From positions 20,949-84,948 of the forward strand of contig CAAGHC010000003.1 of assembly GCA_900769565.1 (NCBI GenBank): a stretch of 64,000 nucleotides of DNA, read 5' to 3'. Made by a program: the position numbers and the translations under genes. Below the pieces are notes generated by a model. That model worked only from the letters and a program-made list of their open reading frames with translations, did not search any database and had not been told where the DNA came from. The DNA is from Clostridia bacterium (GTDB taxonomy: Bacteria > Bacillota > Clostridia > Christensenellales > Borkfalkiaceae). How positions within the stretch are numbered: position 1 is the first letter of the stretch; every line of letters starts with the position of its first letter. Positions 21,614-46,538 of the stretch are shown here, one piece after another.

Positions 21614-21736
21614 ACGTTCAAAAGTAAATATTATCCCTGCATTACCTTTAATGAATATATATTTGATTATCGTAATAGAAAAAGCGACTCTATTTGGGTT
21701 CAAATAGAATCGCTCTTGGCGGAGAAAGAGGGATTT
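21614..21736 (-). repeat. direct repeat copy A: last 20-21 nt of tRNA-Ser plus the ~100-nt region downstream of it
   Basis: TTGGCGGAGAAAGAGGGATTT is identical to 30584-30604. The flanking ~100 nt align with 30476-30583 at roughly 80 percent identity by eye, and each copy has its own terminator hairpin. Confidence 0.8.
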
Positions 21737-21840: not shown

Positions 21841-21885
21841 GAAAACAAAAACTCTATTCAAACCACAAGGGTTCAAATAGAGTTT
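21841..21885 (-). terminator. Rho-independent terminator of the islet operon
   Basis: AAACTCTATTTGAA...TTTGAATAGAGTTT followed by TTGTTTTC on the minus strand. Confidence 0.6.
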
Positions 21886-21975
21886 CTGCTGTGAGTAATT
21901 AAGTATTTGATACAAGTTTCATTTTTGCGAAAAGGTTTCAAAATTGAAAATCGGTTTCAATTTTAACGATAAGGC

Positions 21976-22719
21976 TTATAAACCTAAAATTTGCCGTTTT
22001 TTCGCCTCATACTCTTCGGGCGTAATTGCGCCCTTGTCAAGCAAATCCTTAAAAATCAAGAGTCGTCTGGCTTGGTCGTTTAAGTCCTCTGTCGGAGCAG
22101 ATTCTTTCACTCTTCCGTGCATTGTTTCTGTGCCTTTGATTTTTACAGGAATAGGCTCATTTTCCCAAGCGGAATATGTAGCTTTCATAGACTTTGACAC
22201 AAGGGCAAAATCCTCATCACCCATTTCAATGTAAGGCTTCGATGTTACGGATTTCCACCAAGCGAACAACGCCACTTCAATTGCCAATGATACAAGGAAA
22301 ATAATTAGAAATACTGTGGTAACAGGTCTATCCGATGCGTGGGGAGAGAGCCAAAAGAACTGCGCTATAAGACCGACAAAAACGAAACCACTCAATCCTA
22401 ACGCCCATCTATAGATTCTTCTATACGCCCACGATTTTTTCTCGACAACATTGTATTCAACCCACTCCATACCTTGAGCCATACATACTGTTTCACCGCA
22501 GTGTGGGCATTCCTTGAGTTTATTTCCTAAACGGCGGGGACCTTGGATTTTATATAAAGCATCGATAATCTTCCAGCCTAAAAGCCAAAAAAGCATTGTA
22601 CCTGCCGTTGCAATAAATAGTACAATCATCAGAATTGTCAGCAAGCCCTCGTCATCTCTCTTTAACGTTTTTCCGCAATGAGGACAACAATGGTTTGTTA
22701 TGTTATATTGGAAAGCCAT
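21976..22719 (-). CDS. membrane protein with a split zinc ribbon and a C-terminal SHOCT domain
   Basis: CPHCG occurs twice, with about 4 TM helices. The C-terminus LIFKDLLDKGAITPEEYEAKKRQILGL matches the SHOCT pattern. Confidence 0.6.
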   Translation of the reverse strand: MAFQYNITNHCCPHCGKTLKRDDEGLLTILMIVLFIATAGTMLFWLLGWKIIDALYKIQGPRRLGNKLKECPHCGETVCMAQGMEWVEYNVVEKKSWAYRRIYRWALGLSGFVFVGLIAQFFWLSPHASDRPVTTVFLIIFLVSLAIEVALFAWWKSVTSKPYIEMGDEDFALVSKSMKATYSAWENEPIPVKIKGTETMHGRVKESAPTEDLNDQARRLLIFKDLLDKGAITPEEYEAKKRQILGL

Positions 22720-22739
22720 TTTACTCCCCCTCGATAAGG

Positions 22740-23660
22740 CTATTTTTTGAAAGTTTCTTTATAAGTTTTAGGGTCTACCGCTTCCACGTGAGCCTTGTAT
22801 CCTTCCCACGTTTTCGGTGCCATTACACTTGAAAATGCCTCAAAGTTTGCAAGCTCCCTCTCGGTGTGGTATACGGCATATTCAATCACATCAAAGCGGT
22901 CGAGGTATTCTTGCATAACATTATAGAATACGTGCGCCACGATTTCGGGAGGATTGCGGAAAGCACCACAGCCAAAAGCACCCAAAATAAGGACTTCATT
23001 TCCGTTGGCTACCGCCACCTCGAATATTCTACGAACGCGCGACGTGAGCAGTTTTTCAAGCTCTGTGGCGCTTATTTTTGCTGCCGTAGTACCTGCGTTA
23101 GGGTTCATTGCATTGCTTGGGCGCTCTCTTAAATTAGGCGCAGCACAAGTAAGAATATTGACCTTCCACCACTCCTCCTGTGGAAGAGGCTCTGGAAAGT
23201 TCGTATCACTCTTGAATACGCAAACATTAGGCGTGTAAATGCAATCGTTGTTATAAAGCGGATTATTGGCTTTTCTGTGAGGCATATAAAACGCATCCCA
23301 CATTGCCGAAATGTTCAAGCACGGGTAAAGTGTTGTGCAACGGCAGATGCATTCTTCCTGCGCCGATGAGCCGTTAACGACTCCACCACCGGGGTTGCTT
23401 GCCGATGCAAAGTTTAGCACGCACACCTTCTTGCCTTGCTTGGCATAAGGCTCGGCGGCTTCAAGTGAACGCTTGCCGCTAACTATAACTTTTGCCTGTT
23501 TCTGCATTTGCGCCACGGGAACGACAATCGTTTCCTTTTCGGCTATAAATGTTTGCGCCGCAACCGATGCGGTAATCGTTGATTTCAGATACGAATCGGT
23601 TAAATATCTGCGTTCCGTATCTTTAAATATTTCTGCGTTTTTGGTTCTTCTATCTATCAT
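22740..23660 (-). CDS. TIGR02452/DUF2263 family macrodomain protein (bacterial-type poly(ADP-ribose) glycohydrolase-like)
   Basis: LNFASASNPGGGVVNGSSAQEECICRCTTLY contains the GGG-X7-QEE PARG signature. ILGAFGCGAFRNPP is also typical of the family. Confidence 0.8.
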   Translation of the reverse strand: MIDRRTKNAEIFKDTERRYLTDSYLKSTITASVAAQTFIAEKETIVVPVAQMQKQAKVIVSGKRSLEAAEPYAKQGKKVCVLNFASASNPGGGVVNGSSAQEECICRCTTLYPCLNISAMWDAFYMPHRKANNPLYNNDCIYTPNVCVFKSDTNFPEPLPQEEWWKVNILTCAAPNLRERPSNAMNPNAGTTAAKISATELEKLLTSRVRRIFEVAVANGNEVLILGAFGCGAFRNPPEIVAHVFYNVMQEYLDRFDVIEYAVYHTERELANFEAFSSVMAPKTWEGYKAHVEAVDPKTYKETFKK

Positions 23661-23664
23661 CGTT

Positions 23665-26427
23665 TTACTGTACTAAATATGCAACTTGAATATACCCCGA
23701 AACCTGTCCGCTGACAGAAACGGAATAATTCAAAGACGAAGGCGTGAATAAGTAATTATCCAAATTGGTTGATTGAACGTTAGTGAACTTGCTTTCGATG
23801 CCACTGCTTATGTACTCGGTTTTGCTATATCCCATACCGCCAGCACCATTGCTTGCCGTTCCTGTCATATTAACAGTAAACACCACAGAAACATCGGTAT
23901 ATGTCAAAGAGTCATCTTTCTTGGAAACAGTTGTGCCTACAAGATACGAGGTGTTATAACAATCAACGTTTAAATAATTTCTGAAATTGGAGTTGTTAAG
24001 GGTTATGGTTTGCCACTGATACTTGATATACCTTGTATCGGTATATGTGTAACCATCATAAACAACGCTGGCGGTAAAAGCAAAGGTGATTTCCGTTTCC
24101 GTAGCGTTTTTGGTTACCTCATACGCAGTGTTAGAAACATAAGTGGTTGCGGTGTCGGTAAAGCCTCCACAGCCGCAAGTAAAGGTTGCAGTTACATTGA
24201 AACCATTTTCATCCTCAACCCAACTGAAGGTCGGTTCAGAATAATAGTGAGTTTCACCATCACATTCTTGTGCGGGGACATATCCATCGTAGAAGATAAA
24301 GCCTAAATCAGCAAGCCCATAGTTCATTTCCGCCGTATCAAAATATGCAGCCATCCAATTTAACAAGTCCTGCAAACAAACGGAATATATTTCGAGCATC
24401 TCACTTTCATAATCTTCAAGGCCATTGTAGCTAAAATACGTTAGCTTGGTTCGAGTGGTGAAAGTGCCAGCCTCTAAATAGCCCTTTACATCGTTTTGAT
24501 CTACAAAGCTGCCGTTGGAATAAATGCTATAAGAGCAACCATAATAGTAGCCTTGGGATGTTGGCAACAAACTGAGATATGTGTAATAATATGCACCATC
24601 GTCACCAAACCAACTCATTGATGCAAAAGCGGTGTTGTCACTGTCAACGCACACCATTGACATCTTTACGTCATAGTTGCTTCCTTCAAACTCCTCGTCA
24701 ATTCTGTACCACTGATTTGCATTATCAAGCTCTCCCTCTGCACGAATATGGTTTTTCAGCAGAGTCAAAGCGTTAGTGTTATAACCGAAGTCAAGCGCCT
24801 CGAAACCAAAGTCCTCGGCAGAAATATCATCTACATAACTGTCAAGGCAATAATCGAACCACTCCACAATGCACGCAACTGCATTTGAGTAAAACTCCAT
24901 AATCGAGTCTTCTTCCCAATACTCTCCTTCGTAAGAATAATGGGTCAGAATGGTTGTGGGCGTATATGTTGCGGGATTTATGTATCCGTAGGTATAATTT
25001 TCGTTTTCGCCATAGGTGTAATGCGCATAATAGGTATACAAGCCCTCTTCATTAGGTCGCAAATCAATACTCAAATACAAATCCGAGCCGTCCGAAAACT
25101 CCCAAACGCCCTCAATAAAGGTAATTTTAGAAGATTCATCATAACCAATGGCATAAATAAATCCGTTACCCTCGATTTGGTGATAATACAAATCATCGGT
25201 AATAAAATTATAATTACCGACTATCCATTCAGCAAGAATATCGTTTGGAGTATGCTGCAAATCGTACAGTTCTGCAATTGTAAGAGGTGTGCCGTATGAA
25301 AGATTATCAAGCTCTCCTGTGAAAATTGCTACATTGATTTCACCATAGAAAGCACCTACGTTTATACCGATAACTTCTCCGTATTTGTTTATCAACGGAC
25401 TACCCGAGCTACCATTGGTGATAGCAGCATCGTGTTGAACATAGGTTACGCCTTCGATTTCTCTCTTTGCATAAGATACGATACCAACGGAAACGGAGGC
25501 TGTAAAGCCTTTAGGCGAACCTACGGCATATACCATTTCTGCGACAACGGGGTCGTTTTTACAAATGTTTGCGGGGGTAAGACCCGTTGCATCGATTTCC
25601 AAAACTGCCAAATCAATATCAGCATCATAAGCCAATACGGATTTAATTGTATAAGTATCCTCTCCTATCGTAATCGTGGCAGAATAAGCGCCGTCAATTA
25701 CGTGATAGTTGGTGATGATTTTTCCATCTGCACTGCTTACAAATCCAGTTCCCAGCGCAAGAGGCATACCTTTTTTATCATAGGTTATAATCTCGCCAAC
25801 ATACTTGAGAGCTTGGTTGTAAATCTCGGTTGAGGTGTACTCTTGCAAGAGATAGTTTTCCTCGTAGTAATAATTGCAATTATCACGGGTACAACTAAAT
25901 CTTTTTAATCCTTTTTCAAGGCAGGTTGCTTCATCAACGATTGTTACATCATCGCAAGCGTGCTGCAATGCTTGAAGGGTCTCTTGGTGAACGAGAGTCG
26001 TTTCGCAAATGCTACAATGGCTACCCGCAGTTTTGCCTGCGGTCGTACAAGTGGGAGTAACTGCGGCGTCATCAACAGGTGTATGACCAAGGGCTGCTAT
26101 TTCCGTCTGGGCAACAATTATGGTACTGCATACACTACAATGGCTGCCTTCGGTTTTACCTTTTGCGATGCAAGTAGCTGGAACGGCGGCATCGGTAACT
26201 TCGGTGTGAGCAAGCTGGGCAATTGTATCATATTCGGAATAACCGCAATCACAGGTTCTTGTCTGCAAACCGGGCGCAGTACAAGAAGGCGTAGTTGTGG
26301 TTGTCCACGCCGAAAAGCTGTGAGTATGGTCCCCGTCGTCAGAAGAGTCGCATGCAGTAAAGCATACAGCCATCGTCAACGTCATTAGGAAAATAAGAAT
26401 CGGTAAAAAAGCCCGCCTCAATTTCAT
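23665..26427 (-). CDS. 920-aa lipoprotein with Cys-rich repeats, a trypsin-like (S1) serine protease domain and a duplicated Tyr-rich C-terminal domain
   Basis: Lipobox (AVCFTAC). Two ~41-aa repeats (H-T-x-V-x-D-A-A-V-x-x-T-C-x-x-x-G-K-T-x-G-S-H-C-S-x-C). Catalytic triad contexts NYHVIDG, DIDLAVLE and GSSGSPL. Confidence 0.75.
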   Translation of the reverse strand: MKLRRAFLPILIFLMTLTMAVCFTACDSSDDGDHTHSFSAWTTTTTPSCTAPGLQTRTCDCGYSEYDTIAQLAHTEVTDAAVPATCIAKGKTEGSHCSVCSTIIVAQTEIAALGHTPVDDAAVTPTCTTAGKTAGSHCSICETTLVHQETLQALQHACDDVTIVDEATCLEKGLKRFSCTRDNCNYYYEENYLLQEYTSTEIYNQALKYVGEIITYDKKGMPLALGTGFVSSADGKIITNYHVIDGAYSATITIGEDTYTIKSVLAYDADIDLAVLEIDATGLTPANICKNDPVVAEMVYAVGSPKGFTASVSVGIVSYAKREIEGVTYVQHDAAITNGSSGSPLINKYGEVIGINVGAFYGEINVAIFTGELDNLSYGTPLTIAELYDLQHTPNDILAEWIVGNYNFITDDLYYHQIEGNGFIYAIGYDESSKITFIEGVWEFSDGSDLYLSIDLRPNEEGLYTYYAHYTYGENENYTYGYINPATYTPTTILTHYSYEGEYWEEDSIMEFYSNAVACIVEWFDYCLDSYVDDISAEDFGFEALDFGYNTNALTLLKNHIRAEGELDNANQWYRIDEEFEGSNYDVKMSMVCVDSDNTAFASMSWFGDDGAYYYTYLSLLPTSQGYYYGCSYSIYSNGSFVDQNDVKGYLEAGTFTTRTKLTYFSYNGLEDYESEMLEIYSVCLQDLLNWMAAYFDTAEMNYGLADLGFIFYDGYVPAQECDGETHYYSEPTFSWVEDENGFNVTATFTCGCGGFTDTATTYVSNTAYEVTKNATETEITFAFTASVVYDGYTYTDTRYIKYQWQTITLNNSNFRNYLNVDCYNTSYLVGTTVSKKDDSLTYTDVSVVFTVNMTGTASNGAGGMGYSKTEYISSGIESKFTNVQSTNLDNYLFTPSSLNYSVSVSGQVSGYIQVAYLVQ

Positions 26428-26487
26428 TGTTTTAGCCGTCCCTCTAAAATGTTTATTAAAATATTATATCACACAATTAAATATTTT

Positions 26488-27087
26488 TCAATCCGTTTCA
26501 CTACAAACGAACATATTTATAACAATTTTATTGTCTTTTTTACTTTTTTGAACCGCATACTCATAGGCAATGCGTGTTCCGCTTTTCGGCTGATAGGTGC
26601 TTATATCCCTATTAGCCCTTTTTCTTTTTGGAGGCTGATATGCCTCGTTATAGTAGAAAACACAGTAATCACTGGCATCTATCATCTCTTGATTACGCTC
26701 GACGTAAGATGCCTTTCCCGCCGAGTAAACCTTATCGGATTGCACCTCGGCATCGTAGTCCTTGAGCTTGACGTCCGTTTTCAGAACCGCAGCCCAAGAC
26801 CTCTCCACTTTCTCTTTCTCGTCTTTTTTAACCGCATACTCGCTACGCCGGGTGTATGCGACCCTCACAATTTGGGGATACTCTTTCTGGTAGTCGGTTA
26901 CGATTCGGTGGCAAAGGTCGTCAAATTCGCTGCGACTTCCGAACAGAAAATACCGCACACCCTCATCCACGATGAGCTTGCGAATTGTATCTTTTATATT
27001 TGCCACTAATTCATCGGTCAACGCAATGGTGCGATGGCCAATGAAACAGCACTTCTTTTCTGCCACACTACCACCCCAATCGGACAA
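26488..27087 (-). CDS. SLOG superfamily protein, DUF1273/YpsA-like
   Basis: The layout matches B. subtilis YpsA from recall: CCFIGHR..., YFLFGSRSEFDDLC...YQKEYPQIVRVAY..., MIDASDYCVFYYN. Confidence 0.65.
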   Translation of the reverse strand: MSDWGGSVAEKKCCFIGHRTIALTDELVANIKDTIRKLIVDEGVRYFLFGSRSEFDDLCHRIVTDYQKEYPQIVRVAYTRRSEYAVKKDEKEKVERSWAAVLKTDVKLKDYDAEVQSDKVYSAGKASYVERNQEMIDASDYCVFYYNEAYQPPKRKRANRDISTYQPKSGTRIAYEYAVQKSKKDNKIVINMFVCSETD

Positions 27088-27133
27088 AGATATATCAATT
27101 ATAGCATATAATTATGACTTTTTCAACCGATTT

Positions 27134-27151
27134 TTATAGTCCGCAGACGAT
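27134..27151. promoter_or_regulatory. operator-like site TTATAGTCCGCAGACGAT upstream of the SLOG gene
   Basis: An 18-nt exact copy of 27542-27559. It lies between the XRE stop codon and the SLOG start codon. Confidence 0.5.
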
Positions 27152-27155
27152 ATTT

Positions 27156-27503
27156 CTATTTTAGGTACTTATTATCCCGTAAAGCCTTCTTTATTCCTCT
27201 TGCATTATCGAGGATTACCCGCCGTTCAAAGTTCGTGCAATCCCTCAAAATGACCTCAAATTCCGTAACGCAGGCGGACAATTGTTGGTCGAGCGAATCG
27301 CACAGGATTGCATCGGTAGAAACGCCGAGTGCGTTGGCAAGGGCTATCAGCGTTTCCACGCTCATAAATTTCATCCCATTCTCAAGGTGGCTTATGTAGG
27401 TCGTGGAAACATCCACCATTTCGGATAGTTTGGCTTGAGATAAATTTTTGCGCCTACGCAGCCTTCGTATCCTCTGTCCAACAGTATAAAAATCAAGTTT
27501 CAT
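27156..27503 (-). CDS. XRE family HTH transcriptional regulator
   Basis: 115 aa; VGQRIRRLRRRKNLSQAKLSEMVDVSTTYISHLENG is a canonical HTH_3 motif. Confidence 0.85.
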   Translation of the reverse strand: MKLDFYTVGQRIRRLRRRKNLSQAKLSEMVDVSTTYISHLENGMKFMSVETLIALANALGVSTDAILCDSLDQQLSACVTEFEVILRDCTNFERRVILDNARGIKKALRDNKYLK

Positions 27504-27541
27504 TTAAGAACCTCCTTTAATTTAAAAAATTCTCTAATTTA

Positions 27542-27571
27542 TTATAGTCCGCAGACGATTAAATCGTCAGC
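27542..27571. promoter_or_regulatory. operator: second copy of TTATAGTCCGCAGACGAT overlapping a 21-bp near-perfect palindrome
   Basis: The palindrome is GCAGACGATT-A-AATCGTCAGC. It sits in the divergent XRE/XRE intergenic region. Confidence 0.55.
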
Positions 27572-27619
27572 CGTAGATTTCAATAATCGTCTGGAAATGA
27601 TAAACTATAACTGATAATT

Positions 27620-27629
27620 TCGTCTGCGG
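27620..27629. promoter_or_regulatory. inverted copy of the operator core (TCGTCTGCGG)
   Basis: Reverse complement of CCGCAGACGA, about 20 nt upstream of the second XRE gene's start. Confidence 0.45.
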
Positions 27630-27648
27630 TTTATGGAGGTGCGCCACA

Positions 27649-28008
27649 ATGGATGAGAACACATTAGAATATAAAGTCGGTCAGCGAATAAGGGCTGCAC
27701 GTCAAGCGAAGAAAATGAGCCAAGCGGATTTGGCTTTTGAAGCCCATGTGTCCTTGCCGCACATCAGTGATATTGAGCTTGGAAAGAAGGAAATGCTCCT
27801 TACAACCTTCTGTAAAGTCATAGAAGCGTTGCAGGTGTCAGCGGACGAAATCCTACGCCCTGATGTCCCCGAGGTGAACCGAATTTACCAGAAAGAATTT
27901 GCTGAATTACTCGGTGATTGCACACCAACGGAAATCGAGGCAATTCTTAAAATTGTGCGTGAGTTGAAGATAACAATGCACACCAAAAAAGATGAATACG
28001 ATGACTAA
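27649..28008 (+). CDS. XRE family HTH transcriptional regulator
   Basis: 119 aa; VGQRIRAARQAKKMSQADLAFEAHVSLPHISDIELG. RBS is ggaggtg. Confidence 0.85.
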   Translation: MDENTLEYKVGQRIRAARQAKKMSQADLAFEAHVSLPHISDIELGKKEMLLTTFCKVIEALQVSADEILRPDVPEVNRIYQKEFAELLGDCTPTEIEAILKIVRELKITMHTKKDEYDD

Positions 28009-28159
28009 TTGAGTGGGTTTGCGCCCACTCTTTTTTTATTTCCTCCAATAATTTTTTGCGTTTCAATAACTGGCGGTTAAAATGTTGACCGACAGTTATT
28101 CGCATTTTGTCGAAAAAGCGGTTATAATGTCATCAACTATTACTATGGAGGCAAATATT

Positions 28160-28768
28160 ATGAGTACTGAAGTTGAGGTATATGAACGCTTGGCGCAAAT
28201 CGGTGAGGCGCAGAAATACTCCACTTTCTTTGGCGAAAACTCCGAGCAGGCACAGAAGTTAGCCGAGCATAAGGCTTGGCTTCAGAACATTCGGCACGAA
28301 CGCCCCAATACGGCGCACCATTACCGAGTGGGCATATATATCCGTTACTACAATCAAACGAAATACGATAATTACCTTGAAAAGCACCTTCAGGAATTCA
28401 ATGACACGATGGCGCTTTGCCCCAATTGGGAGCTTGTGGATTTCTATATTGACGAGGGTGCTACTGCACCGAATATGGAGAGCGCCAAGGAATGGAGTCG
28501 GCTTTTGCAGGATTGCTTGGACGGAAAGATTGACCTCATCATCACTCAAAAAGTTAAAAACGTATCGAAAAAGCCACACGAAATTACATATCTTGCAAGA
28601 ATTCTCTCTCATATGAATCCGCCCGTTGGTATGTACTTTATCTCCGAGGACATTTTCACGCTTGCGTCCTACTATCAAAGCGACCGCATGGACGAGTTCT
28701 TCCTGCCGTCCCCCGATTGGAAACTGCTGCCCGACGATTTGGATGAAGGAGGCAATCCCGATGATTGA
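28160..28768 (+). CDS. resolvase-domain paralog lacking the catalytic serine
   Basis: Aligns with the next gene's product (VGIYIRYYNQTKYD vs VGIYVRVSTDDVRQ; IDLIITQKVKNVSKK vs ITLIITKSVSRFAR), but Ser and Arg are replaced. ATG with a ggagg RBS; the stop overlaps the next start (ATGA). Confidence 0.65.
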   Translation: MSTEVEVYERLAQIGEAQKYSTFFGENSEQAQKLAEHKAWLQNIRHERPNTAHHYRVGIYIRYYNQTKYDNYLEKHLQEFNDTMALCPNWELVDFYIDEGATAPNMESAKEWSRLLQDCLDGKIDLIITQKVKNVSKKPHEITYLARILSHMNPPVGMYFISEDIFTLASYYQSDRMDEFFLPSPDWKLLPDDLDEGGNPDD

Positions 28769-29560
28769 CGAAGCAAGACGTAACTCCCGCCAAGAGGAAA
28801 AAGAAAATGTCCGCCGACGTATCCGTGTGGAAATCAACCCCGATAATTATGAGTATTTTCCCGAGAAGAAAAAGACGGATTATTATGACACAAGCACTCC
28901 ACAGCTTGTCGGCATTTATGTGCGTGTTTCAACCGATGACGTAAGGCAGACCACCTCTTTCGAGTTGCAGAAAAAATACTATGAGGAGTTCGTTCAAAAG
29001 CACCCCAACTGGACTCTCGTCAAAATATACGCAGACGAAGGCATCAGCGGTACTTCCACCAAAAAGCGTGATGCGTTCAATCAGATGATTGCCGATGCAA
29101 AGGCGGGAAAAATTACGCTTATAATCACGAAAAGCGTGTCCCGTTTTGCAAGAAACGTATTAGACTTCATAGGCATCGTCCGCAACCTTGCAGAACGCAA
29201 GCCCGCTGTCGGCGTTTTCTTTGAATCGGAGGCAATCTTCTCGCTCAACGATGACTCGCAGATGGCATTGACCTTTCAAGCCACAATGGCAGATGAAGAA
29301 TCGCATACCCGTAGCCGTAGTATGGAAACATCCCTGCGTATGCGCCTTGACCACGGCTTACCCTTGACCCCGAAACTGCTCGGCTATAGCCACGATGCAA
29401 GAGGTAAACTTATCATCAATCCCGATGAAGCCCCCACTGTAAAGTTGGCGTTTTATATGTATCTTTTCGGCTACTCTTCGGGACAAATCGCAAAAGCGTT
29501 CATTGCCCTTGAGCGTAAGTCCTACCTTGGCAATACCACGAAATGGACGTCTATGGGTGT
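28761..29560 (+). pseudogene. large serine recombinase, truncated after about 265 codons
   Basis: Intact catalytic domain (YVRVSTDDVRQTTSFELQ, SRFARN) and the start of the recombinase domain (LLGYSHDARGKLIINPDEAPTVKLAF...KWTS). The frame then runs into AT-rich antisense DNA. The zinc-ribbon and coiled-coil parts are missing. Confidence 0.7.
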
Positions 29561-29750
29561 ATTCAACACCGTATTCAAAGTAAAGTCCATTTTCATCTTC
29601 ATAAAGGTCGTAATCTGTAACCGTTATCTTTCCACGATTGGTTATAACAACAGTTATTTTGTTATTTTCTTTATCAAGAAAGTAAATATTGAAAGTGATA
29701 AATTCTTCACCATCAAAGTGTTGAAATTCTTTTAAGTAGCATTTATTCAT
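29358..29750 (-). CDS. hypothetical small protein; only the first ~65 codons look genuine
   Basis: Low-GC ORF whose 3' half is antisense read-through into the recombinase remnant. Confidence 0.3.
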   Translation of the reverse strand: MNKCYLKEFQHFDGEEFITFNIYFLDKENNKITVVITNRGKITVTDYDLYEDENGLYFEYGVEYTHRRPFRGIAKVGLTLKGNERFCDLSRRVAEKIHIKRQLYSGGFIGIDDKFTSCIVAIAEQFRGQG

Positions 29751-29762
29751 AATTTTTCCTTC

Positions 29763-30062
29763 TTATTTGTCTGCTAATTTGTACCAGATGTTGTATTCTA
29801 ATTCAATTTCTCTTGTTTCATAAGAGCCGTTCTTTTCAAATTCAACTTCACGGTATTCTGTTATAGAACCTTTATATTCATTTGTTCTTGTATGGATAGG
29901 ATGCAATTCTTTCATACAATCTTCAAATACACGAATATACGGTTTTCCGTTTTTTCCTACACAGGCGATTATCAAATCTTTATCGGTTATATAACCAATA
30001 CCTGTAATCTTGGTAAAATCACTTTTACCACTTCTTGTTACTGAGTAAACTACTTTTTTCAT
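29763..30062 (-). CDS. hypothetical small protein (~99 aa)
   Basis: Internal start MKKVVYSV preceded by caggaggt; the listed ORF extends to 30128. No recognisable family. Confidence 0.4.
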   Translation of the reverse strand: MKKVVYSVTRSGKSDFTKITGIGYITDKDLIIACVGKNGKPYIRVFEDCMKELHPIHTRTNEYKGSITEYREVEFEKNGSYETREIELEYNIWYKLADK

Positions 30063-30475
30063 CTTTTGGATACCTCCTGAATTTTTTATTAGCCTTTCGG
30101 CAGGGGCTAAGAACCACTGAAAAAACACTAATCTTTTTGCTTGTTGTATCGTTTCTCAGCACGTCAAGGATATAGGATAAAATTATTGCGTAAATAAAAA
30201 AAGAGCCAAACTCAAATAGAGTCTGACCCTTGTATAATATATTAAGTTCTAAGCGATAATTTTAGCCCATTGACTTGCTGTTTTTTCTGTGGTACAACGA
30301 CACCACGAAAGGCAAAAAATTCAGAATTTATATTTTTAATTTATAAAAAAGTTGCAAATAAAGAAGGGGCCTACAAGAAGTCTTGTAAGCCCTTAAACGG
30401 TTATTTTTTCTTTTTAATGAAATCGCCGTGTTCATTTCTTGGTATGAACTTCCAGTGCGTATTTTCGGCTTTAGG

Positions 30476-30604
30476 ACGTTCAAAATCAAAGATAATGCCT
30501 GCATTTCCTTTAACAAATATATATTTAAGTATCGTAATAGAAAAAACAGTCGCATCTGAACTAAGGTTCAAACGCGACTGCATTTGGCGGAGAAAGAGGG
30601 ATTT
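30476..30604 (-). repeat. direct repeat copy B (3' end of the intact tRNA-Ser plus its downstream region)
   Basis: See copy A at 21614-21736. Confidence 0.8.
30541..30580 (-). terminator. terminator of tRNA-Ser
   Basis: CAGTCGC...GCGACTG hairpin followed by TTTTTT on the minus strand. Confidence 0.6.
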
Positions 30605-30676
30605 GAACCCTCGCTGCGCTTATCACACACTACTCCCTTAGCAGGGGAGCCCCTTCGGCCTCTTGGGTATTTCTCC
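30585..30676 (-). tRNA. tRNA-Ser (anticodon GCU)
   Basis: 92-nt reverse-complement cloverleaf: acceptor GGAGAAA/TTTCTCC, anticodon arm CTCCC-CTGCTAA-GGGAG, long variable arm, T arm GAGGG-TTCAAAT-CCCTC, encoded CCA. Confidence 0.92.
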
Positions 30677-34809: not shown

Positions 34810-36153
34810 TTAAATTAAACCTATCATAAGGTTACATGATAAAACGATTAAAACGAGTGCGATAGGATAGGTTGATGCGTAAGCACCTGCAACGTCGTCC
34901 GTACCTGCGGTAGAAATAAGAGTACCGAGTGCGGGCGTAGAAGTCATACCACCGGTAATTGAGCCAAGGTTGTTGAGAAGTGGCATCTTCAACAAGTATT
35001 TAGCAACGAAGAAACCAACTATCATGGGAAAAATTGTCATAACTGCGCCACCGATAAAGCCCCAAGCAACAATACCGATATCGTCACCGATTGCAGAAAC
35101 AAGGTTAACACCACCATCAACACCAGCACCGATAAGGAATAACATAAGTCCTAATTCTTTCAAACTCTTAAGAGTTGCTTCGGGAATTTCTAGAGATAGT
35201 CTACCGATTCTACCAAAGTGTCCGAATACCAAACACATGATAAGTACGCCACCCGTAGTTCCAAGCGAGAACACAGCGCCTGCAAAAAGCGGAATTTTTA
35301 TACCACCTAAAACAAGACCTGCAACTATTGCAAGAGCCAAAGCTGTAAAGCCGAAGTCGTCGCACTTAAAAAGATTTTTCTTTTCCTTTTTCTCTGCGTT
35401 TTCTAAAACTTCAGGTCTTAATAAGCTTCTTTCATAGTTCATGTCTGCTTTAACAAATTTGGGCAATAATTGAACGAACAAAACTACGCCGATAACACCG
35501 AAAGGATATGCAATTGCGTGACCTATGGTAACCATAGTATCTTCCATACCCTTAAGTTTAACGGCTTCGCCTGCTGCCGAATAACCAGGGGTTGAAGTAA
35601 GAGCACCTGATAAAATACCCGACCAGAAATCAGAGCCGTACGGTGATACGAAAGTAAAGATTACTGCTACTGCCGTGCCTGCAAGAATGATTAAAATACC
35701 CATGAAGATATATGTCTTAAAGTTTTTAGCCAAGTCTCTAAAGAATTTAGGACCTGCAATAAAACCAACAGAGCCTACGAACATAACTAAACCTACGTTT
35801 TGAATTACGCTCTTATAAAATTTAGTATTACCTGTACCAGGTTTCAAATTAAGGCTACCTAAAATCGGTGTCGTATCAGGTATCAACGTGCAGAGATAAC
35901 CGAAAAGTATTGCTACTAAAAATACGCCTGCCGTTCCTAAATTAACGCCTTTAATGGTAATTCTACCAAGTAAATATCCAAGTACTGTCACAGCAAATAA
36001 GCCGAATAATAACGAAGATATAGAGAAAATACTATTAACTCCGACATCTGACTTGCTAGCGTTAATGCCACACCATACGCCTATGCCTGCAACTGCGACC
36101 AAAGCAATAGCAATCCAAAGCCACTTAAGACTTTTGCTTTTTTGTTGTTCCAT
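34810..36153 (-). CDS. AAE (aspartate:alanine exchanger / YidE-YbjL-SucE) family transporter
   Basis: Two Asp-Al_Ex repeats (LGRITIKGVNLGTAGVFLVAILFG and GGIKIPLFAGAVFSLGTTGGVLIMCLVFG). No TrkA_C insert. Confidence 0.7.
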   Translation of the reverse strand: MEQQKSKSLKWLWIAIALVAVAGIGVWCGINASKSDVGVNSIFSISSLLFGLFAVTVLGYLLGRITIKGVNLGTAGVFLVAILFGYLCTLIPDTTPILGSLNLKPGTGNTKFYKSVIQNVGLVMFVGSVGFIAGPKFFRDLAKNFKTYIFMGILIILAGTAVAVIFTFVSPYGSDFWSGILSGALTSTPGYSAAGEAVKLKGMEDTMVTIGHAIAYPFGVIGVVLFVQLLPKFVKADMNYERSLLRPEVLENAEKKEKKNLFKCDDFGFTALALAIVAGLVLGGIKIPLFAGAVFSLGTTGGVLIMCLVFGHFGRIGRLSLEIPEATLKSLKELGLMLFLIGAGVDGGVNLVSAIGDDIGIVAWGFIGGAVMTIFPMIVGFFVAKYLLKMPLLNNLGSITGGMTSTPALGTLISTAGTDDVAGAYASTYPIALVLIVLSCNLMIGLI

Positions 36154-36248
36154 TTTTTTACTCCTAAGAAATCTTATTTCATCAAATCCCTTTATCTTTG
36201 CACACTTAAGCCCGTCGACCTCAATCGACGGGCAAAATGGACAAATTA

Positions 36249-37859
36249 TTAAACGTTAGGTTGTTTAGTATAGTTAGGTAATAATTGCGGAGAAAGTTTA
36301 GTGGGTTTTAATCCAGCATCTTCAAGTTCTGCCTTGAATGCATCAACGTGAGCAAGCGTGAGTTCTTTAACTTCAACGCTCTTGCACTTTTCACCTGCGC
36401 TCTTACCTGCGTTTCTACCGAATACGATAATATCGAGAAGTGAGTTACCCATAAGTCTATTTCTGCCGTGGATTCCCCCTACTGCCTCACCTGCTACGAA
36501 CAAGTTTTCAACAGTAGTGCTCATGCCGTCAGCCGATATATCTAAACCACCGTTTTGATAGTGAAGGGTCGGATAAACGAGAATGGGGTCTTTTCTAATA
36601 TCAATACCGTACTTACCAAACATACGGAGCATTGCGGGAATACGCTTTTCAATCGTGCCTTCGCCACCGATAATATCAATCATCGGGGTATCGAGCCATA
36701 CGCCTTCGCCGTCGGTAGTCTTAATACCGTTGTCACGCTTTTTACATTCTCTAATGATAGAAGATGCAGTAACGTCACGGGTTTCAAGCGAGTATACGAA
36801 TGCTTCGCCGTCTTTATTTACGAGTTGTGCGCCGAGTGAACGAACTTTTTCGGTAACGAGAGCACCGAAGATTTGGGTAGGTTCAGCAACGCCCGTGGGG
36901 TGATATTGTAAAGTATCAGCGTAAAGTAATTTTGCGCCTGCTCTATAACCTAATACTAAACCGTCGGCAGTTGCGCCGTAGTGGTTAGAAGTCGGGAAAC
37001 CTTGATAGTGAAGTCTGCCTGCACCACCGGTAGCAATTACAACCGTCTTTGCTCTAGCAATAGAGATTTCCTTGGTTTCCATATTCATAAGAACTGCGCC
37101 TGCACACTTACCTTCGGTATCTTTAATAAGTTCGATAGCAGCGGTGAAGTCTACTACGGGAATACCTCTGTTCAAAACTTCATCACGAAGAGTTCTCATG
37201 ATTTCTGCACCCGAGTAGTCCTTACAAGCGTGCATACGTTTTCTACTAGTACCACCACCGTGGGTAGTAATCATAGTACCGTCTGCTTCTTTATCGAACA
37301 TAACGCCGAGTTCGTTAAGCCATTTAATACAGTCGGGAGCGTCGGTAACGAGCTTGTATAAAAGTTCGTGCTTTGCAGCAAAGTGACCGCCACCAAAAGC
37401 ATCAAGATAGTGAATTGCAGGGCTATCGTTGGGCTTATCTGCAGCTTGAATACCACCTTCTGCCATCATGGTGTTTGCATCACCTATACGAAGTTTGGTT
37501 ACCATCATAACTTTTGCGCCCTTGTTGTCGGCTTCGATTGCTGCAGAAGAACCTGCGCCACCACCACCGATAACTAAAACGTCTACGTCGTAGTCGGGTT
37601 TAGAAAGGTCGATATCCATATCGAGAACCCTTGACTTACCTTGTAAAAGGTCTGCAAGTTCGTGAAGAACTTTACCCCCCTTGTTAGGTCCAACTTTTAA
37701 TTGTTCGTAAGCGCTATCGATATAGTCGGGATGGTTTTCTTTCAAAACCGTTTGTTTTTCGTCAGCAGTCATTCTGCCAAAGAGATTTTCAAGTCTTTTT
37801 GCTCTAGTCGCTTCTACTTTCTTCATAGAAACGAGTTGTTCTTCGGTATATTTATACAT
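36249..37859 (-). CDS. fumarate reductase/succinate dehydrogenase-family flavoprotein (soluble type)
   Basis: VLVIGGGGAGSSAA, QYHPTG and GRNRLMGNSLLDIIVFG motifs. No His at the covalent-FAD position (DANTMMAEGG). ~90-aa N-terminal extension. Confidence 0.8.
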   Translation of the reverse strand: MYKYTEEQLVSMKKVEATRAKRLENLFGRMTADEKQTVLKENHPDYIDSAYEQLKVGPNKGGKVLHELADLLQGKSRVLDMDIDLSKPDYDVDVLVIGGGGAGSSAAIEADNKGAKVMMVTKLRIGDANTMMAEGGIQAADKPNDSPAIHYLDAFGGGHFAAKHELLYKLVTDAPDCIKWLNELGVMFDKEADGTMITTHGGGTSRKRMHACKDYSGAEIMRTLRDEVLNRGIPVVDFTAAIELIKDTEGKCAGAVLMNMETKEISIARAKTVVIATGGAGRLHYQGFPTSNHYGATADGLVLGYRAGAKLLYADTLQYHPTGVAEPTQIFGALVTEKVRSLGAQLVNKDGEAFVYSLETRDVTASSIIRECKKRDNGIKTTDGEGVWLDTPMIDIIGGEGTIEKRIPAMLRMFGKYGIDIRKDPILVYPTLHYQNGGLDISADGMSTTVENLFVAGEAVGGIHGRNRLMGNSLLDIIVFGRNAGKSAGEKCKSVEVKELTLAHVDAFKAELEDAGLKPTKLSPQLLPNYTKQPNV

Positions 37860-37870
37860 ATTCTGCCCCC

Positions 37871-38545
37871 TTATTTCTCAATTTCTCTGTTGTTGTAGAG
37901 TTCTTTCAACTCTTCAACGGGCTTATTCATGAGCGTTTCGATAATATCTTTGTACACGCCTTCGTCAATTTCCTTAACTCTTTCGATAAGGTGCATAGAT
38001 TCGGGTGCTAAATATTTACCGTAAAGTCTTCTAGCAAGTTCTGCTACCTGTGGATGTGAAATACCGGCAGGACAACGAGAAGAACATACACCACACATTA
38101 CGCAGTCAAAAGATTCTTCTGCGCAGTTTGCATAGTCGCCACGTTGAGCGTACGCAATGTATTGCATAACGTTAAGACCTTGAGTACAACTCTTGGTACA
38201 AGCGTTGCAACCGATACAAGCGTAAATTTCGGGGTAAAGTTGCATCATAATTTGTTCGCTGGGCTTAACCTTTTCAATGTCGTAAACTTGTTTTACGAGC
38301 GGGAAGAAGGGAAGCGTTGCAACGTACATATTGTCTTCAACTTTGGTTTGACAAGCAAGACAAGCCTTTAACTCTCTATCACCTTTGATACGGTAAATAG
38401 TCGAGCAAGCACCACAGAAACCGTTACGGCAACCACAACCACGAACGAGTTGATAGCCAGCGTATTCCATTGCTTTCATTATGGTAAGACTTTCGGGAAC
38501 TTCGTATTTTTTGCCAAACAAAAAAACGTTTACTTTCTTTTCCAT
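37871..38545 (-). CDS. iron-sulfur subunit (2Fe-2S plus two 4Fe-4S motifs), FrdB/SdhB-like
   Basis: CGCRNGFCGAC...C, CIGCNACTKSC and CVMCGVCSSRCP. Lies 11 nt upstream of the flavoprotein gene. Confidence 0.7.
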   Translation of the reverse strand: MEKKVNVFLFGKKYEVPESLTIMKAMEYAGYQLVRGCGCRNGFCGACSTIYRIKGDRELKACLACQTKVEDNMYVATLPFFPLVKQVYDIEKVKPSEQIMMQLYPEIYACIGCNACTKSCTQGLNVMQYIAYAQRGDYANCAEESFDCVMCGVCSSRCPAGISHPQVAELARRLYGKYLAPESMHLIERVKEIDEGVYKDIIETLMNKPVEELKELYNNREIEK

Positions 38546-38562
38546 TTTAATTTTTCTCCTTA

Positions 38563-39396
38563 TTAATACTCATCGGGAAGTTGGTCAAGTTGGTCCATTC
38601 TGAACACAGGGCCGTCTTTACATACGTATTTAGAACCTACGTTACAACGACCGCACTTACCTATTCCGCATTTCATTCTCAATTCTAACGTGGTGTAAAC
38701 TTGCTCTTTGTTAAAGCCGAGTTCACCCAAGCCTTGAAGGGTAAATTTAATCATTATCGGCGGACCGCAGAGAACTGCAGTTTTATTCGGTTCAAATCCT
38801 AATTCCTTAACGTAAGTGGGAACGAAACCTACGTGTCCGTCCCAACCTTCTTGTTCACGGTCGATAGTTAAGTGAACGTTTATGCTGGGGTCGGTCATCC
38901 ATTCGTTAATGATTTCCTGATAATGAACAAGGTCTTCTTTACTTCTTGAACCGTAAACGATATCAACCTTGCCGTAATTTTCACGATTGTCCCTAACGTA
39001 GTTGATAACCGAACGAACGGGCGCTAAACCGATACCACCTGCGATAAAGAGCATATCTTTGCCCTTGAACGCCGTTTCTACCGGGAAACCGTTGCCGTAA
39101 GGTCCTCTAACCGTTACTTGTTGACCTACTTCGATACCGTGTATCCATTCGGTAACACAACCGCATTTTTTGATTGAAAATTCAACGTAATCTTTATTCG
39201 TTGGCGACGAAGTGATTGAAAACAACGCTTCGCCTACGCCCGGCATAGAAAGCATTGCGCATTGACCGGGTTTATGGATAAAGGGTTTTTGTCCGTCGAG
39301 CGTCAAAACTCTGAAGGTCTTAACGTCGGGTGTATCCTGTCTTATAGCGGTAACTTCACACACCTGCGGAATTAAAGGTTCTCTTTCGTTATTCAT
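38563..39396 (-). CDS. FAD/NAD(P)H-binding 2Fe-2S oxidoreductase (FlxA / sulfhydrogenase-gamma / AsrB-like)
   Basis: FNR-like fold (FIAGGIGLAPV) with C-terminal CGIGKCGRC...C. Confidence 0.75.
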   Translation of the reverse strand: MNNEREPLIPQVCEVTAIRQDTPDVKTFRVLTLDGQKPFIHKPGQCAMLSMPGVGEALFSITSSPTNKDYVEFSIKKCGCVTEWIHGIEVGQQVTVRGPYGNGFPVETAFKGKDMLFIAGGIGLAPVRSVINYVRDNRENYGKVDIVYGSRSKEDLVHYQEIINEWMTDPSINVHLTIDREQEGWDGHVGFVPTYVKELGFEPNKTAVLCGPPIMIKFTLQGLGELGFNKEQVYTTLELRMKCGIGKCGRCNVGSKYVCKDGPVFRMDQLDQLPDEY

Positions 39397-40420
39397 TCTC
39401 TTTACCTCCGAGAGTTTTCATTACTTTAACGATATTCATAGATATCGGACATTTGCTTAAGCATCTACCGCAACCAACGCAACCGAACAAACCGTCGTTA
39501 TTGGTGGGATAGTAAACTAATTTGTGCATAAATCTTTGACGGAAACGTTCTAATTGAGTTAATCTCGGTTGACCTGCACTCATCTTCGTAAAGTCAGAGT
39601 ACATACAAGAGTCCCAACAACGGAAACGTTGAATACCCGATTTAGTCTTAAAATCCTTAATGTCGTAACATTGACAAGTCGGACATACGAAAGTACAAGT
39701 ACCACAACCAAGGCAAGCCTCTGAAAGAGTTTTCCATTCGGGTGCGTTAAAGAACTTGTCCGTTTTGTCCTTACCGAATTCGCTAGCCTTAACGTCTTTA
39801 AGCGGAAGTTTTGCCATAACCGCTTTGATTTGTTCTTTTTGTTCGTTAACAGCCTTATCGTCACATTCTTCGGTAACGCTTTCAAGTTTTTCCATAAGCG
39901 CTTTACCCTTTTCGGTTTTAGCCGTAAGGTAAATATCGCTTTCGGTCTTATACGCTTCGATATCGCCTGCAGGTGCAGATGCGTCTATATCAAAGGTTTG
40001 ACAGAAACAAGTTTCGGTAGGTCTAGTACAAGCCATGGATACGACAACGCCGTGTTCACGCCTGTTTTTCCAGTAGGTATCTACCGGTTCTGCAAGGAAT
40101 ACTCTATCAAGAACTTCCAAACTCTTAACGTCACAAGCACGAACGCCGAAAACTACGAAATCTTCGCTTTCAGAACGGGTATCGATAACTTCAATCTTCT
40201 TTCCGTCCGTCTTAAATTCCATAAGACTTTCGGTTTGTGGGAAGAAGAAGTCCTTTGCGCTACGGTCGGTCTTTAAAGCGTTTGACATCTTCATTCCGTT
40301 TTCATACTTTGCATATACAGCGCCCTTATCACCGTCAACGGGTATATAAAGTTTTGCACTTTCAGATATTTTAGCAAAGAGTGCGTCTAAATTATTGAGA
40401 GAACATTTACGCATTTTCAT
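39389..40420 (-). CDS. 4Fe-4S protein (FlxB / sulfhydrogenase-beta / AsrA-like)
   Basis: CLGCGTCTFVCPTCQC and CVGCGRCLSKCP. Overlaps both neighbours by 8 and 14 nt. Confidence 0.7.
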   Translation of the reverse strand: MKMRKCSLNNLDALFAKISESAKLYIPVDGDKGAVYAKYENGMKMSNALKTDRSAKDFFFPQTESLMEFKTDGKKIEVIDTRSESEDFVVFGVRACDVKSLEVLDRVFLAEPVDTYWKNRREHGVVVSMACTRPTETCFCQTFDIDASAPAGDIEAYKTESDIYLTAKTEKGKALMEKLESVTEECDDKAVNEQKEQIKAVMAKLPLKDVKASEFGKDKTDKFFNAPEWKTLSEACLGCGTCTFVCPTCQCYDIKDFKTKSGIQRFRCWDSCMYSDFTKMSAGQPRLTQLERFRQRFMHKLVYYPTNNDGLFGCVGCGRCLSKCPISMNIVKVMKTLGGKENE

Positions 40421-41405: not shown

Positions 41406-41827
41406 CTCAAATCCTCCAATCTCTTGTTTTCACCAAGTTTGGTTACCGTTTGAACAAAGTCGTTCATGGTAGCTGCAAATTTAGCACCTTCTGCCGCCGA
41501 TACCCATTCTACACGGGTACGTTCTCTTTCAATTCCTAGATAATCGAGCATTGAGAAAAGAAGAGCCATTCTTCTTCTAGTGTAGTAGTTACCAGAAGTA
41601 TAGTGGCAATCCCCAGGGTGGCAACCACAAAGGATAACGCCGTCTGCACCACGTTGGAATGCACGAAGGATAAACATGGGGTTTACCCTACACGAACAAG
41701 GAACACGGATAACTTTTACTTCTGCAGGGTAAGCTAATCTGTTACTACCTGCAAGGTCTGCGCCCGCATACGAGCACCAGTTACAACAAAACGCCACGAT
41801 TTTAGGCTTATATTCGTTTACTTGCAT
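41393..41827 (-). CDS. mvhD: methyl-viologen-reducing hydrogenase delta subunit homolog (MvhD/FlxD)
   Basis: IVAFCCNWCSYAGADLAG...RVPCSCRV...GADGVILCGCHPGDCHY is the FlpD/MvhD signature. Confidence 0.85.
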   Translation of the reverse strand: MQVNEYKPKIVAFCCNWCSYAGADLAGSNRLAYPAEVKVIRVPCSCRVNPMFILRAFQRGADGVILCGCHPGDCHYTSGNYYTRRRMALLFSMLDYLGIERERTRVEWVSAAEGAKFAATMNDFVQTVTKLGENKRLEDLRCKK

Positions 41828-43812: not shown

Positions 43813-43827
43813 TTGTATTCTCCTTTT

Positions 43828-44220: not shown

Positions 44221-44226
44221 ACTGTT

Positions 44227-45003: not shown

Positions 45004-45022
45004 CTGTTTTTGCTCCTATTTA

Positions 45023-46399: not shown

Positions 46400-46509
46400 T
46401 TTTTACGTCTCCTTGATAGTAATTTTCTTTCGACCTTACCAAACTGCCGAAAGGTAAAAATCGCATAAAATCCCTTATAATCGTGATTGTATATATTATA
46501 ACAAACTGC

Positions 46510-46538
46510 TTGCAAATTGTAAATGGTTTAATTTGCAA
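46510..46538. promoter_or_regulatory. inverted repeat TTGCAAATT-N11-AATTTGCAA upstream of the fumC-hdr-frd operon
   Basis: 9-bp perfect arms, 110-140 bp upstream of the fumC start, in the divergent region shared with azlC. Confidence 0.3.

Follow-up and report, generated by a model that had tools for sequence, protein, structure and literature searches.

Five genes packed together on the minus strand of a stretch of Clostridia DNA (contig CAAGHC010000003.1, 64,000 nucleotides; the whole stretch is called the window below) raise the question of whether they work as one system. Reading in the direction of transcription, they encode the helix-turn-helix (HTH) regulator XRE1 (27156–27503), a YpsA-like SLOG protein (26488–27087), a lipoprotein protease (23665–26427), a poly(ADP-ribose) glycohydrolase (PARG)-like macrodomain protein (22740–23660) and a membrane protein with a SHOCT domain (21976–22719). 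All five are co-oriented, with gaps of 68–89, 60, 4 and 20 nt between successive genes, which reproduces the compact five-gene layout described in an earlier reading of the sequence alone (the original prediction). That prediction regarded the four genes behind the regulator as a self-contained sensor, eraser and effector module. The comparisons described here argue against such a module: its partners are separable, and the downstream cargo is exchanged wholesale among relatives. On balance, and with some reservation, we favour the view that the cassette is a remnant immunity region followed by interchangeable, separately acquired cargo, in which the PARG acts alone, rather than one system.

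To determine whether the genes keep company elsewhere, we compared the neighbourhoods of SLOG and PARG homologs, almost all of which come from metagenome-assembled genomes (MAGs) or metagenome contigs. In a sample of 80 genome loci with SLOG homologs 45–97% identical to that of the window, PARG was present only once, on a near-identical 5.6-kb contig that carries the complete set. One locus with a SLOG of 86% identity has XRE1, SLOG and protease without PARG or SHOCT, and loci at ∼76% identity have in common only a backbone of recombinase, XRE2|XRE1 and SLOG (XRE2 being a divergent second HTH regulator). For the 69 SLOG loci with analysable open reading frame (ORF) neighbourhoods, no cassette partners were found among the neighbours. 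From the opposite side, none of 28 PARG-homolog loci (61–77% identity) contained SLOG, protease or SHOCT, and cross-searches with profile hidden Markov models (SLOG against the PARG loci and PARG against the SLOG loci) were negative except for the one near-identical copy. The original prediction had named a lack of co-occurrence of homologs of the four genes in other genomes as the result that would speak against a module, and this is largely what was seen (PARG at 1 of 80 loci; SLOG at 0 of 28). Across diverged genomes, the full set was seen in one sister lineage and otherwise only in copies nearly identical to that of the window.

The unit that stays constant across the relatives is the recombinase, XRE2|XRE1 and SLOG, together with two operators. 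The cargo variants behind this same backbone (SLOG 75–86% and XRE2 87–96% identical; 76–96% for the backbone as a whole) number at least six. In the window (V1), SLOG is followed by protease, PARG and SHOCT. In V2 (L007, L134) it is followed by a protease, a 190-aa protein and an LRR_5 protein, and in V3 (L009, L130) by Sel1, a different lipoprotein trypsin, LRR_5 and two SHOCT proteins; neither variant has PARG. V4 (L114–118) carries PKD, two LRR_5 and two Zn-ribbon proteins, PARG, DUF1835 and a 260-aa protein, and V5 (L120) has seven small genes, including peptide deformylase and LOR, and then PARG. V6 (L122–129) has a 148-aa protein, an HTH protein and an MBG_2 protein, with no PARG. A Pfam search with the small cargo genes of V1b, V5 and V6 returned nothing. 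The closest relative of the window protease is the V2 protease (75–85% identity), which has no PARG or SHOCT partner, and a deletion derivative of the element (L137) retains only PARG–SHOCT. On gene content, the protease is best described as independent cargo and the SLOG as part of the conserved element backbone. Just past the V6 cargo, one locus (L122, 16922–19723) carries a gene for a reverse transcriptase of the group II intron type (RVT_1, GIIM) that also has an Exo_endo_phos domain.

An identical PARG protein is found on contigs from three unrelated genomic contexts. Their DNA matches the window at 99.97% identity from 21890 up to either 29478 or 29553, where the match stops, and one exact end is common to the copies. 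The horizontal acquisition suggested in the original prediction is therefore borne out by near-identical DNA in three unrelated contexts. The region 21890–29553 of the window is the immobilised remnant of a prophage-like integrative element of gut Clostridia with several large serine recombinases, and what remains of it corresponds, as judged from its genes, to the element's immunity region and accessory-gene slot. At the right, cargo-side end there is a conserved terminal segment (21890–21975, minus strand), ending ...ACTTAATTACTCACA, that is identical in the three contexts; this 87-nt end is 82% conserved in the V2 locus L007. On the other side of the switch, two recombinase-related genes are found on the plus strand. 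One encodes a 228-aa resolvase-N-terminal-like backbone protein (28082–28768; Resolvase E 3e-4; phrog_95 integrase E 1.8e-9), and the other a truncated large serine recombinase (28761–29573) that comprises residues 1–271 of 636, with identity to the full-length copy in L002 ending at 29553. The remaining backbone genes were sought in the whole 64-kb window and none is present. Because the recombinase is truncated and the rest of the backbone is absent from the window, we regard this copy as immobile.

A full element is available in L002 (extended as L141). Leftward from XRE2|XRE1, its genes run in the order XRE2, a ∼200–228-aa protein, the recombinase Rec636, three unknown proteins, a ParB-like DUF6551 protein, Rec529 and Rec431 (convergent with the preceding genes), a SHOCT_2 peptide and a 136-aa protein; holin and tail-fibre genes lie directly after this backbone. 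The same backbone recurs in many metagenomic contigs, and relatives keep intact Rec636, Rec529 and Rec432. In L003 (extended as L142), an SPP1-type portal gene is fused to the truncated recombinase, with MuF, scaffold, capsid and tail genes behind it, a geometry that would be expected from one inversion inside such a prophage. In this region (L003/L142 10680–13082), the N-terminal 240 residues of the recombinase are kept. A PHROGs search assigned no function to the backbone proteins p312, p124 and p239 or to the window ORFs at 29358–30128.

Two independent copies of the element are broken within the same recombinase gene, 75 bp apart (window 29478–29553). We considered a site-specific crossover at the recombinase breakpoints and rejected it, since the breaks are 75 bp apart and not at the same position. 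Other remnants (L115, L137) keep the cargo end and have lost variable amounts of the other side. A near-identical cassette (L006, JAFUKL010000041.1) lies on a 5.6-kb contig binned to a MAG of Muribaculaceae (Bacteroidota), all other carriers being Clostridia; the contig has probably been misbinned, unless the copy points to wide transfer.

The immunity region is organized around the two HTH genes. XRE1, a putative maintenance repressor of the Cro/CI type (115 aa; HTH_3 E 1e-14), is transcribed away from XRE2 (27649–28008, plus strand; 119 aa; HTH_3 E 7e-13), which is 87–96% conserved across the family. In the 64 kb there are exactly two copies of the 18-mer ATCGTCTGCGGACTATAA, one at 27134–27151, between XRE1 and SLOG, and one at 27542–27559 (both minus strand); even with up to three mismatches, 0.03 matches would be expected by chance. 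These are the two exact copies of the repeated 18-nt operator that had been noticed in the XRE promoter region and upstream of SLOG. Repeat and promoter scans and family conservation place the second copy over the −10 hexamer of the XRE1 promoter match. An inverted-repeat scan revealed a third, inverted operator-like site, TTCGTCTGCGGTTTAT, beside the XRE2 start (27617–27634, plus strand). Both positions of the 18-mer are kept in all nine of the family members examined, and in several relatives the operator is a perfect 16-bp palindrome of the ATAGTC-N4-GACTAT type. Divergent HTH genes with three operator-like sites, two of them conserved across the family, form the layout of a Cro/CI immunity switch, and we read XRE1 and XRE2 from sequence and conservation as a divergent switch of this type acting on palindromic operators.

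The operator next to XRE1 overlaps the −10 of the XRE1 promoter match, which suggests that XRE1 is autoregulated. The operator at 27134–27151 is centred ∼50 nt before the point where SLOG transcription is inferred to start, and it ends 8 nt short of the −35 hexamer in a near-consensus, sigma-70-like SLOG promoter match (27098–27126, minus strand; 11 of 12 consensus positions, extended −10). XRE1 is likely to control SLOG, as a repressor or an activator; with its operators conserved across relatives, this part of the original prediction stands. The protease gene has a promoter match of its own (26463–26491, minus strand), TTGAAA-17-TATAAT with an extended TG, which also fits 11 of 12 positions; these promoter matches are matches to the sigma-70 consensus only and no proof of function. 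No operator was found in a search at the protease promoter. Since it has its own promoter match and no operator, the protease–PARG–SHOCT unit may lie outside XRE control altogether. The protease and SLOG promoter regions (26463–26498 and 27098–27133) are 72% identical over 36 nt, including the −35, TG and −10 elements, which suggests a duplicated promoter module.

We then turned to the individual proteins. The profile searches proposed with the original prediction matched PF10021/TIGR02452, Trypsin_2 and SHOCT, whereas the YpsA family stayed under its gathering score; together with the predicted structure of the SLOG protein they agree with the domains first called. The SLOG score against Pfam YpsA (PF06908) is 25.2 bits, with a gathering score of 27.7, and many close homologs carry a precomputed PF06908 match. 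Because the score was below threshold, the assignment needed structure prediction. An AlphaFold2 (AF2) model derived from 15 homologs (pLDDT 80.5) had 2nx2, the YpsA of Bacillus subtilis, as its best Foldseek match (E 2e-8, TM 0.56–0.62), followed by LOG enzymes and then by the ADPR-binding (MHR) domain of TRPM2. The model thus points to a stand-alone protein with a SLOG Rossmannoid fold closest to YpsA. A sequence-profile search of the PDB with the SLOG alignment gave nothing at E ≤ 1. The family has the invariant motifs CCFxGHR, FLFGSRSxFD and YVERNQxMI, and the protein has no signal peptide. With regard to the GxD/E substrate-binding motif of the YpsA clade (G53/E55 in YpsA), an invariant G50-S-R-S-E54-F-D56 lies after strand 2. 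Its true start is probably the GTG at 27066, giving 192 aa; we prefer this start because gene callers report 192 aa for identical copies.

For more distant SLOG homologs (45–61% identity; Clostridia MAG loci L012–L085, with SLOG mostly at about position 10001), the first upstream gene encodes an XRE-type HTH protein in 43 of 62 loci. It is transcribed divergently in 37 of those 43, and the median XRE–SLOG gap is 133 nt. Within the element family, the XRE1–SLOG pair is instead co-oriented, with a separate promoter match for SLOG. No recurrent family was found in the two genes downstream of the distant homologs, the commonest occurring 4 times among 116 proteins. XRE and SLOG look like a conserved two-gene unit, and one that is apparently undescribed. 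A protein search of the phage collection found a single weak SLOG relative.

The PARG is a 306-aa protein that scores far above the cut-offs of both families (PF10021 E 5e-38, 131 bits, cut-off 23.5; TIGR02452 E 2.7e-50, 171 bits, cut-off 50). Its catalytic loop GGG-VVNGSSA-QEE (G91–G93, Q101–E103) is invariant among homologs. The GGG-X7-QEE signature from which the protein was first recognised is thus intact, and the family scores point the same way. The diphosphate-binding loop GAFGCGAF is also intact and aligns to GAWGCGVF of the PARG of Deinococcus radiodurans; profile matches include PDB 5zda (2e-28) and 3sig (1e-26), the PARG structures solved for D. radiodurans and T. curvata. The protein has a C-terminal extension of ∼23 aa in common with the most similar homologs (305–307 aa); it has no signal peptide and is regarded as cytoplasmic.

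PARG homologs at 61–77% identity lie in long, co-oriented, variable arrays (we singled out L089, L106, L100 and L109, besides L092, L101, L104, L105 and L108). The neighbours there include type I HsdR with a YgjP-like peptidase, a CBASS pair (SMODS-like nucleotidyltransferase and Cap15), GmrSD, DNA methylases and a large DEAD/MZB helicase. From this gene content, the arrays appear to be defence-island-like company for a gene that moves alone. In four of the loci L092, L101, L104, L105 and L108, a Macro-domain protein of 330–340 aa is encoded directly after the PARG homolog, while in L108 it is at position −3; genes for YjbR and a methyladenine glycosylase then follow the Macro-domain gene in L101 and L105. 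In the phage collection, the protein search turned up 19 records with PARG relatives, all at ≤51% identity: jumbo phages (Bacillus phage G, Prevotella Lak phages), one large uncultured phage and one 23-kb faecal-sample record.

The protease (920 aa) is a trypsin-like serine protease (Trypsin_2 E 1e-28, aa 226–355) in which the motifs of the H248/D278/S348 triad are intact and the C-terminal 545 aa have no family match. It begins with a signal peptide and a lipobox, CFTAC, followed by a Cys-rich region, and the lipobox is conserved in four related cargo proteases. The conserved lipoprotein signal peptide indicates that the protease is extracytoplasmic. Since it would be exported, and SLOG and PARG have no signal peptides, direct coupling of sensor to effector is unlikely. 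The mature N-terminus of the cargo proteases opens with a conserved HTHSFSxWTT motif, and repeats of Cys pairs (C-x5-G-x5-C-x2-C type) lie between this motif and the trypsin domain (window aa 27–200, ∼25830–26350; L136 1488–2075; L007 10654–11250).

The last gene of the cassette encodes a protein with two zinc-ribbon-like CPHC motifs, three transmembrane-like segments and a C-terminal SHOCT domain (SHOCT E 8e-9; transmembrane and CxxC scan). This Zn-ribbon/SHOCT family has only 9 proteins. In all three members with a readable upstream gene (V1, L136 and L137), the gene follows a long-form PARG; a further member, L138, falls outside this count as its upstream DNA is missing. PARG and Zn-ribbon/SHOCT may accordingly form a small unit of their own, apparently undescribed, to judge by gene order.

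In the reading that we favour, one or more repressor-side transcripts would express SLOG and the cargo during lysogeny-like carriage. SLOG would bind or process an ADP-ribose (ADPr)- or nucleotide-type ligand for the benefit of the element; a role against immune signals derived from ADPr, and co-occurrence with Macro domains, have been proposed for YpsA-like SLOGs of viruses (PMC9503650). The PARG would work alone as an ADP-ribosyl hydrolase, stripping ADPr from macromolecules of the host or the element, and the modification that it reverses could come from toxins or from the ADP-ribosyltransferases (ARTs) of rival phages or defence systems. As single genes, bacterial PARGs protected cells against the RNA-ADP-ribosylating toxin RhsP2 (PMC11833690), and a stand-alone PARG in the cargo, as its gene contexts portray it, fits such single-gene immunity. 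The protease and the membrane protein would act at the cell envelope, independently of SLOG and PARG.

Several observations weigh against this reading. The gaps of 4 nt between protease and PARG and 20 nt between PARG and SHOCT are operon-like. A sister lineage, L136, keeps all four genes behind XRE1 (XRE1 64%, SLOG 75%, protease 62%, PARG 82% and SHOCT 87% identical; the range of protein identity for the four-gene set is 54–87%), with two extra small genes between protease and PARG, and so the genes have stayed together for some time. PARG, at 82–85% identity, lies 0–2 genes from the cargo end in V1, V1b, V4 and V5, with the intervening genes swapped; on this distribution it may be semi-core rather than random cargo, hinting at a tie to the backbone SLOG. 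The operator on the SLOG side does not overlap the SLOG promoter match. As for the phage origin, the evidence from phage genes consists of neighbours of the backbone in two MAG contigs, L141 and L142, and IMG/VR contains few members of the family (2 loci), sequenced phages almost none. The window copy itself has no phage structural or lysis genes, and a DNA-level search with the cassette against sequenced phages and plasmids gave no match.

The tight packing and co-orientation of the genes, and their retention in L136, are also what would be expected if the four genes were one XRE-controlled ADPr conflict system, in which SLOG senses, PARG erases and the protease and/or the SHOCT protein execute. 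Both SLOG proteins and macrodomains have ties to ADPr, and homologs of the PARG occur in defence-island-like arrays. However, V2 has the protease without PARG or SHOCT, V4 and V5 have PARG without protease or SHOCT, and V3 and V6 have SLOG but lack this PARG; outside the element family there is no co-occurrence. In addition, the protease is a lipoprotein located outside the cytoplasm, with a separate promoter match and no operator at its gene, the cassette contains no ART, TIR or SIR2 to generate a signal, and PADLOC has no model for SLOG, PARG or SHOCT and matches the protease to generic protease-domain models only. We therefore give the four-part system little chance. A smaller core, in which SLOG at the near edge of the cargo slot acts on soluble ADPr-derived signals and PARG at its far edge on ADP-ribosylated macromolecules to oppose ADPr-based immunity, with protease and SHOCT as passengers, has more in its favour: every family member has SLOG, PARG lies near the cargo end in V1, V1b, V4 and V5, and in DNA viruses the SLOG, Macro, NADAR and Nudix domains are reported to be found together more often than expected by chance (PMC9503650). 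A looser ADPr link between SLOG and PARG is possible on these grounds, since PARG recurs at the cargo end of a backbone that always carries SLOG. Nevertheless, PARG is lacking in V2, V3 and V6, although V2 is the closest backbone relative, and distant SLOG homologs are never near PARG or distant PARG homologs near SLOG (80 and 28 loci), so that a two-part core seems to us doubtful, if worth keeping in mind.

The frequent XRE neighbour of distant SLOG genes and the operator adjoining the SLOG promoter could also indicate a toxin–antitoxin or abortive-infection-like pair, with a growth-inhibitory SLOG silenced by XRE until a trigger arrives, and over-expression of YpsA in B. subtilis blocks cell division (PMC6459960). 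The mostly divergent orientation of that XRE gene is, however, the layout of a regulator and not of a type II antitoxin, and the YpsA residues required for the division phenotype are reported not to be conserved in the prophage member YoqJ; such a pair is very improbable. The cargo slot lies downstream of a prophage-type repressor and sister cargo consists mostly of surface proteins (lipoprotein proteases, BspA-type LRR_5, PKD, Sel1), which would suit envelope genes for lysogenic conversion or superinfection exclusion, the protease and SHOCT protein blocking phages or aiding colonisation and PARG and SLOG being unrelated to them. Lipoproteins of lysogeny modules, such as Ltp of phage TP-J34, mediate exclusion. 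Neither protein has homology to known exclusion proteins, and the recurrence of PARG is left unexplained, which makes this the least credible of the explanations and an extremely remote one. A remnant immunity region with exchangeable cargo and a PARG that acts alone remains the reading we favour.

Comparison with described systems supports the absence of a known architecture. The PADLOC-DB v2 scan gave nothing for SLOG, PARG or SHOCT, and only generic protease domains for the protease and generic HTH models for XRE; thus no system model matched, in keeping with the original statement that no defence architecture could be named. A Pfam scan of the cassette likewise found none of the ART, TIR or SIR2 partners already reported as missing, and profile searches detected no ART family in the cassette or backbone. 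Like Thoeris (ThsA SLOG and ThsB TIR), the locus has a SLOG protein of the kind that senses ADPr-derived signals; unlike Thoeris, it lacks TIR and SIR2, and its SLOG is a stand-alone 192-aa protein. Because there is no TIR, and SLOG has no effector domain, the cassette is not Thoeris. It shares with DarTG (ART toxin and macrodomain antitoxin) a macrodomain eraser of ADP-ribosylation, but no ART/DarT is adjacent, and the lack of an ART sets it apart from DarTG.

Each part is nonetheless of a known kind: a bacterial-type PARG, a YpsA/YoqJ-like SLOG, an HtrA-like lipoprotein protease, a Cro/CI switch and large serine recombinases. The PARG resembles the bacterial-type enzymes of D. radiodurans (DRB0099), T. 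curvata and S. coelicolor (SCO0909) in its family scores and two intact loops, and in being stand-alone, patchily distributed and horizontally moved; it differs in its C-terminal extension, its SHOCT-protein partner and its prophage-like carrier. The SLOG protein, whose best predicted fold match is YpsA, is like YpsA/YoqJ (DUF1273) a stand-alone protein of ∼190 aa and, like YoqJ of SPbeta, is prophage-associated. In contrast to YpsA/YoqJ, it is marginal in sequence and has its own invariant motifs, and unlike YpsA it is not beside gpsB, its constant partner being an XRE-type regulator. Immunity regions of temperate phages can carry accessory genes behind the repressor, as in the cI-rexAB layout of lambda. 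The element resembles this type in its divergent HTH genes with operators in common, its adjacent recombinase and its variable repressor-side genes, and phage lysis, tail and head genes adjoin in full-length relatives; it departs from it in having three large serine recombinases and a small resolvase-like protein rather than one integrase.

What appear to be undescribed are the XRE/SLOG pair, the PARG/Zn-ribbon-SHOCT pair and a pattern of insertion next to terminators. These distinctions matter for the choice of genes to study, as the claim of a new four-gene defence system would have led to cloning the wrong unit: XRE travels with SLOG and PARG with Zn-ribbon/SHOCT, and the protease does not travel along. 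The XRE/YpsA-like SLOG pair, widespread in Clostridia, offers a simple two-gene target for the function of SLOG proteins of mobile elements. The locus also provides a natural example of a stand-alone bacterial PARG as mobile cargo, which would fit protection against ADP-ribosylating toxins, and an element family with terminator-abutting junctions may reveal an unusual target-site rule.

To examine where the element ends, we collected its cargo-side junctions (window 21845–21890; L002/L003 11771; L007 15575; L114 12721; L115 12439; L120 10987; L121 3437; L136 6833; L137 5615). The end of the element reads ...TTACTCACA or ...CTTTACTCCCAAAA-like, and in all ten independent contexts a different stem-loop follows within 0–4 nt, with a T-run in nine. 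The stem-loop z-scores range from −2.4 to −8 in nine contexts, with −1.2 in the tenth. In the window, the junction is followed by an intrinsic-terminator hairpin (21845–21889, minus strand) with a 20-bp stem and a T-run (−23.8 kcal/mol, z −8.05). The terminator placed after the cassette by the original prediction does therefore exist, but it sits just beyond the end of the mobile DNA at 21890. We count it outside that DNA because identity with L002 and L003 stops at 21890; from its position abutting the element end, it would be host- or outer-island-derived. These junctions suggest that insertion is targeted to the 5′ foot of terminators, which would be unusual for serine-recombinase elements; a literature search on such elements targeting terminators found nothing relevant. 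Terminator-foot insertion (a structure-directed choice of target), a conserved SLOG behind a CI-like repressor and PARG at the far edge of the slot might be linked properties of the element family, with SLOG and PARG serving jointly as its countermeasure against ADPr-based immunity or toxins, a combination that we consider unlikely.

The cassette was described in the original prediction as lying in a GC-richer islet beside recombinase genes. The GC profile agrees, with a GC content of 0.41–0.45 over 22–29 kb and 0.32–0.37 in the immediate flanks. A second GC-raised stretch (0.42–0.46) is found at 36000–50000 of the window, and because it is equally GC-rich, GC contrast alone is not enough to set the islet apart.

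The 8.85-kb islet is bracketed by an imperfect ∼125-nt direct repeat (80–86% identical), which includes a perfect copy of the 20-nt 3′ end of a tRNA-Ser gene. This gene, tRNA-Ser(GCT), lies at 30585–30676 on the minus strand, and its last 20 nt with ∼105 nt of downstream DNA (30476–30604) are repeated at 21614–21736. The 125-nt repeats were considered as att sites of the serine-recombinase element and rejected, as the element stops at 21890, which is 153 nt inside the repeat. The tRNA-bracketed islet contains no tyrosine integrase. Given that the element remnant ends 153 nt inside the repeat and that there is no tyrosine integrase, the islet looks like an older tRNA-linked island that the element entered later.

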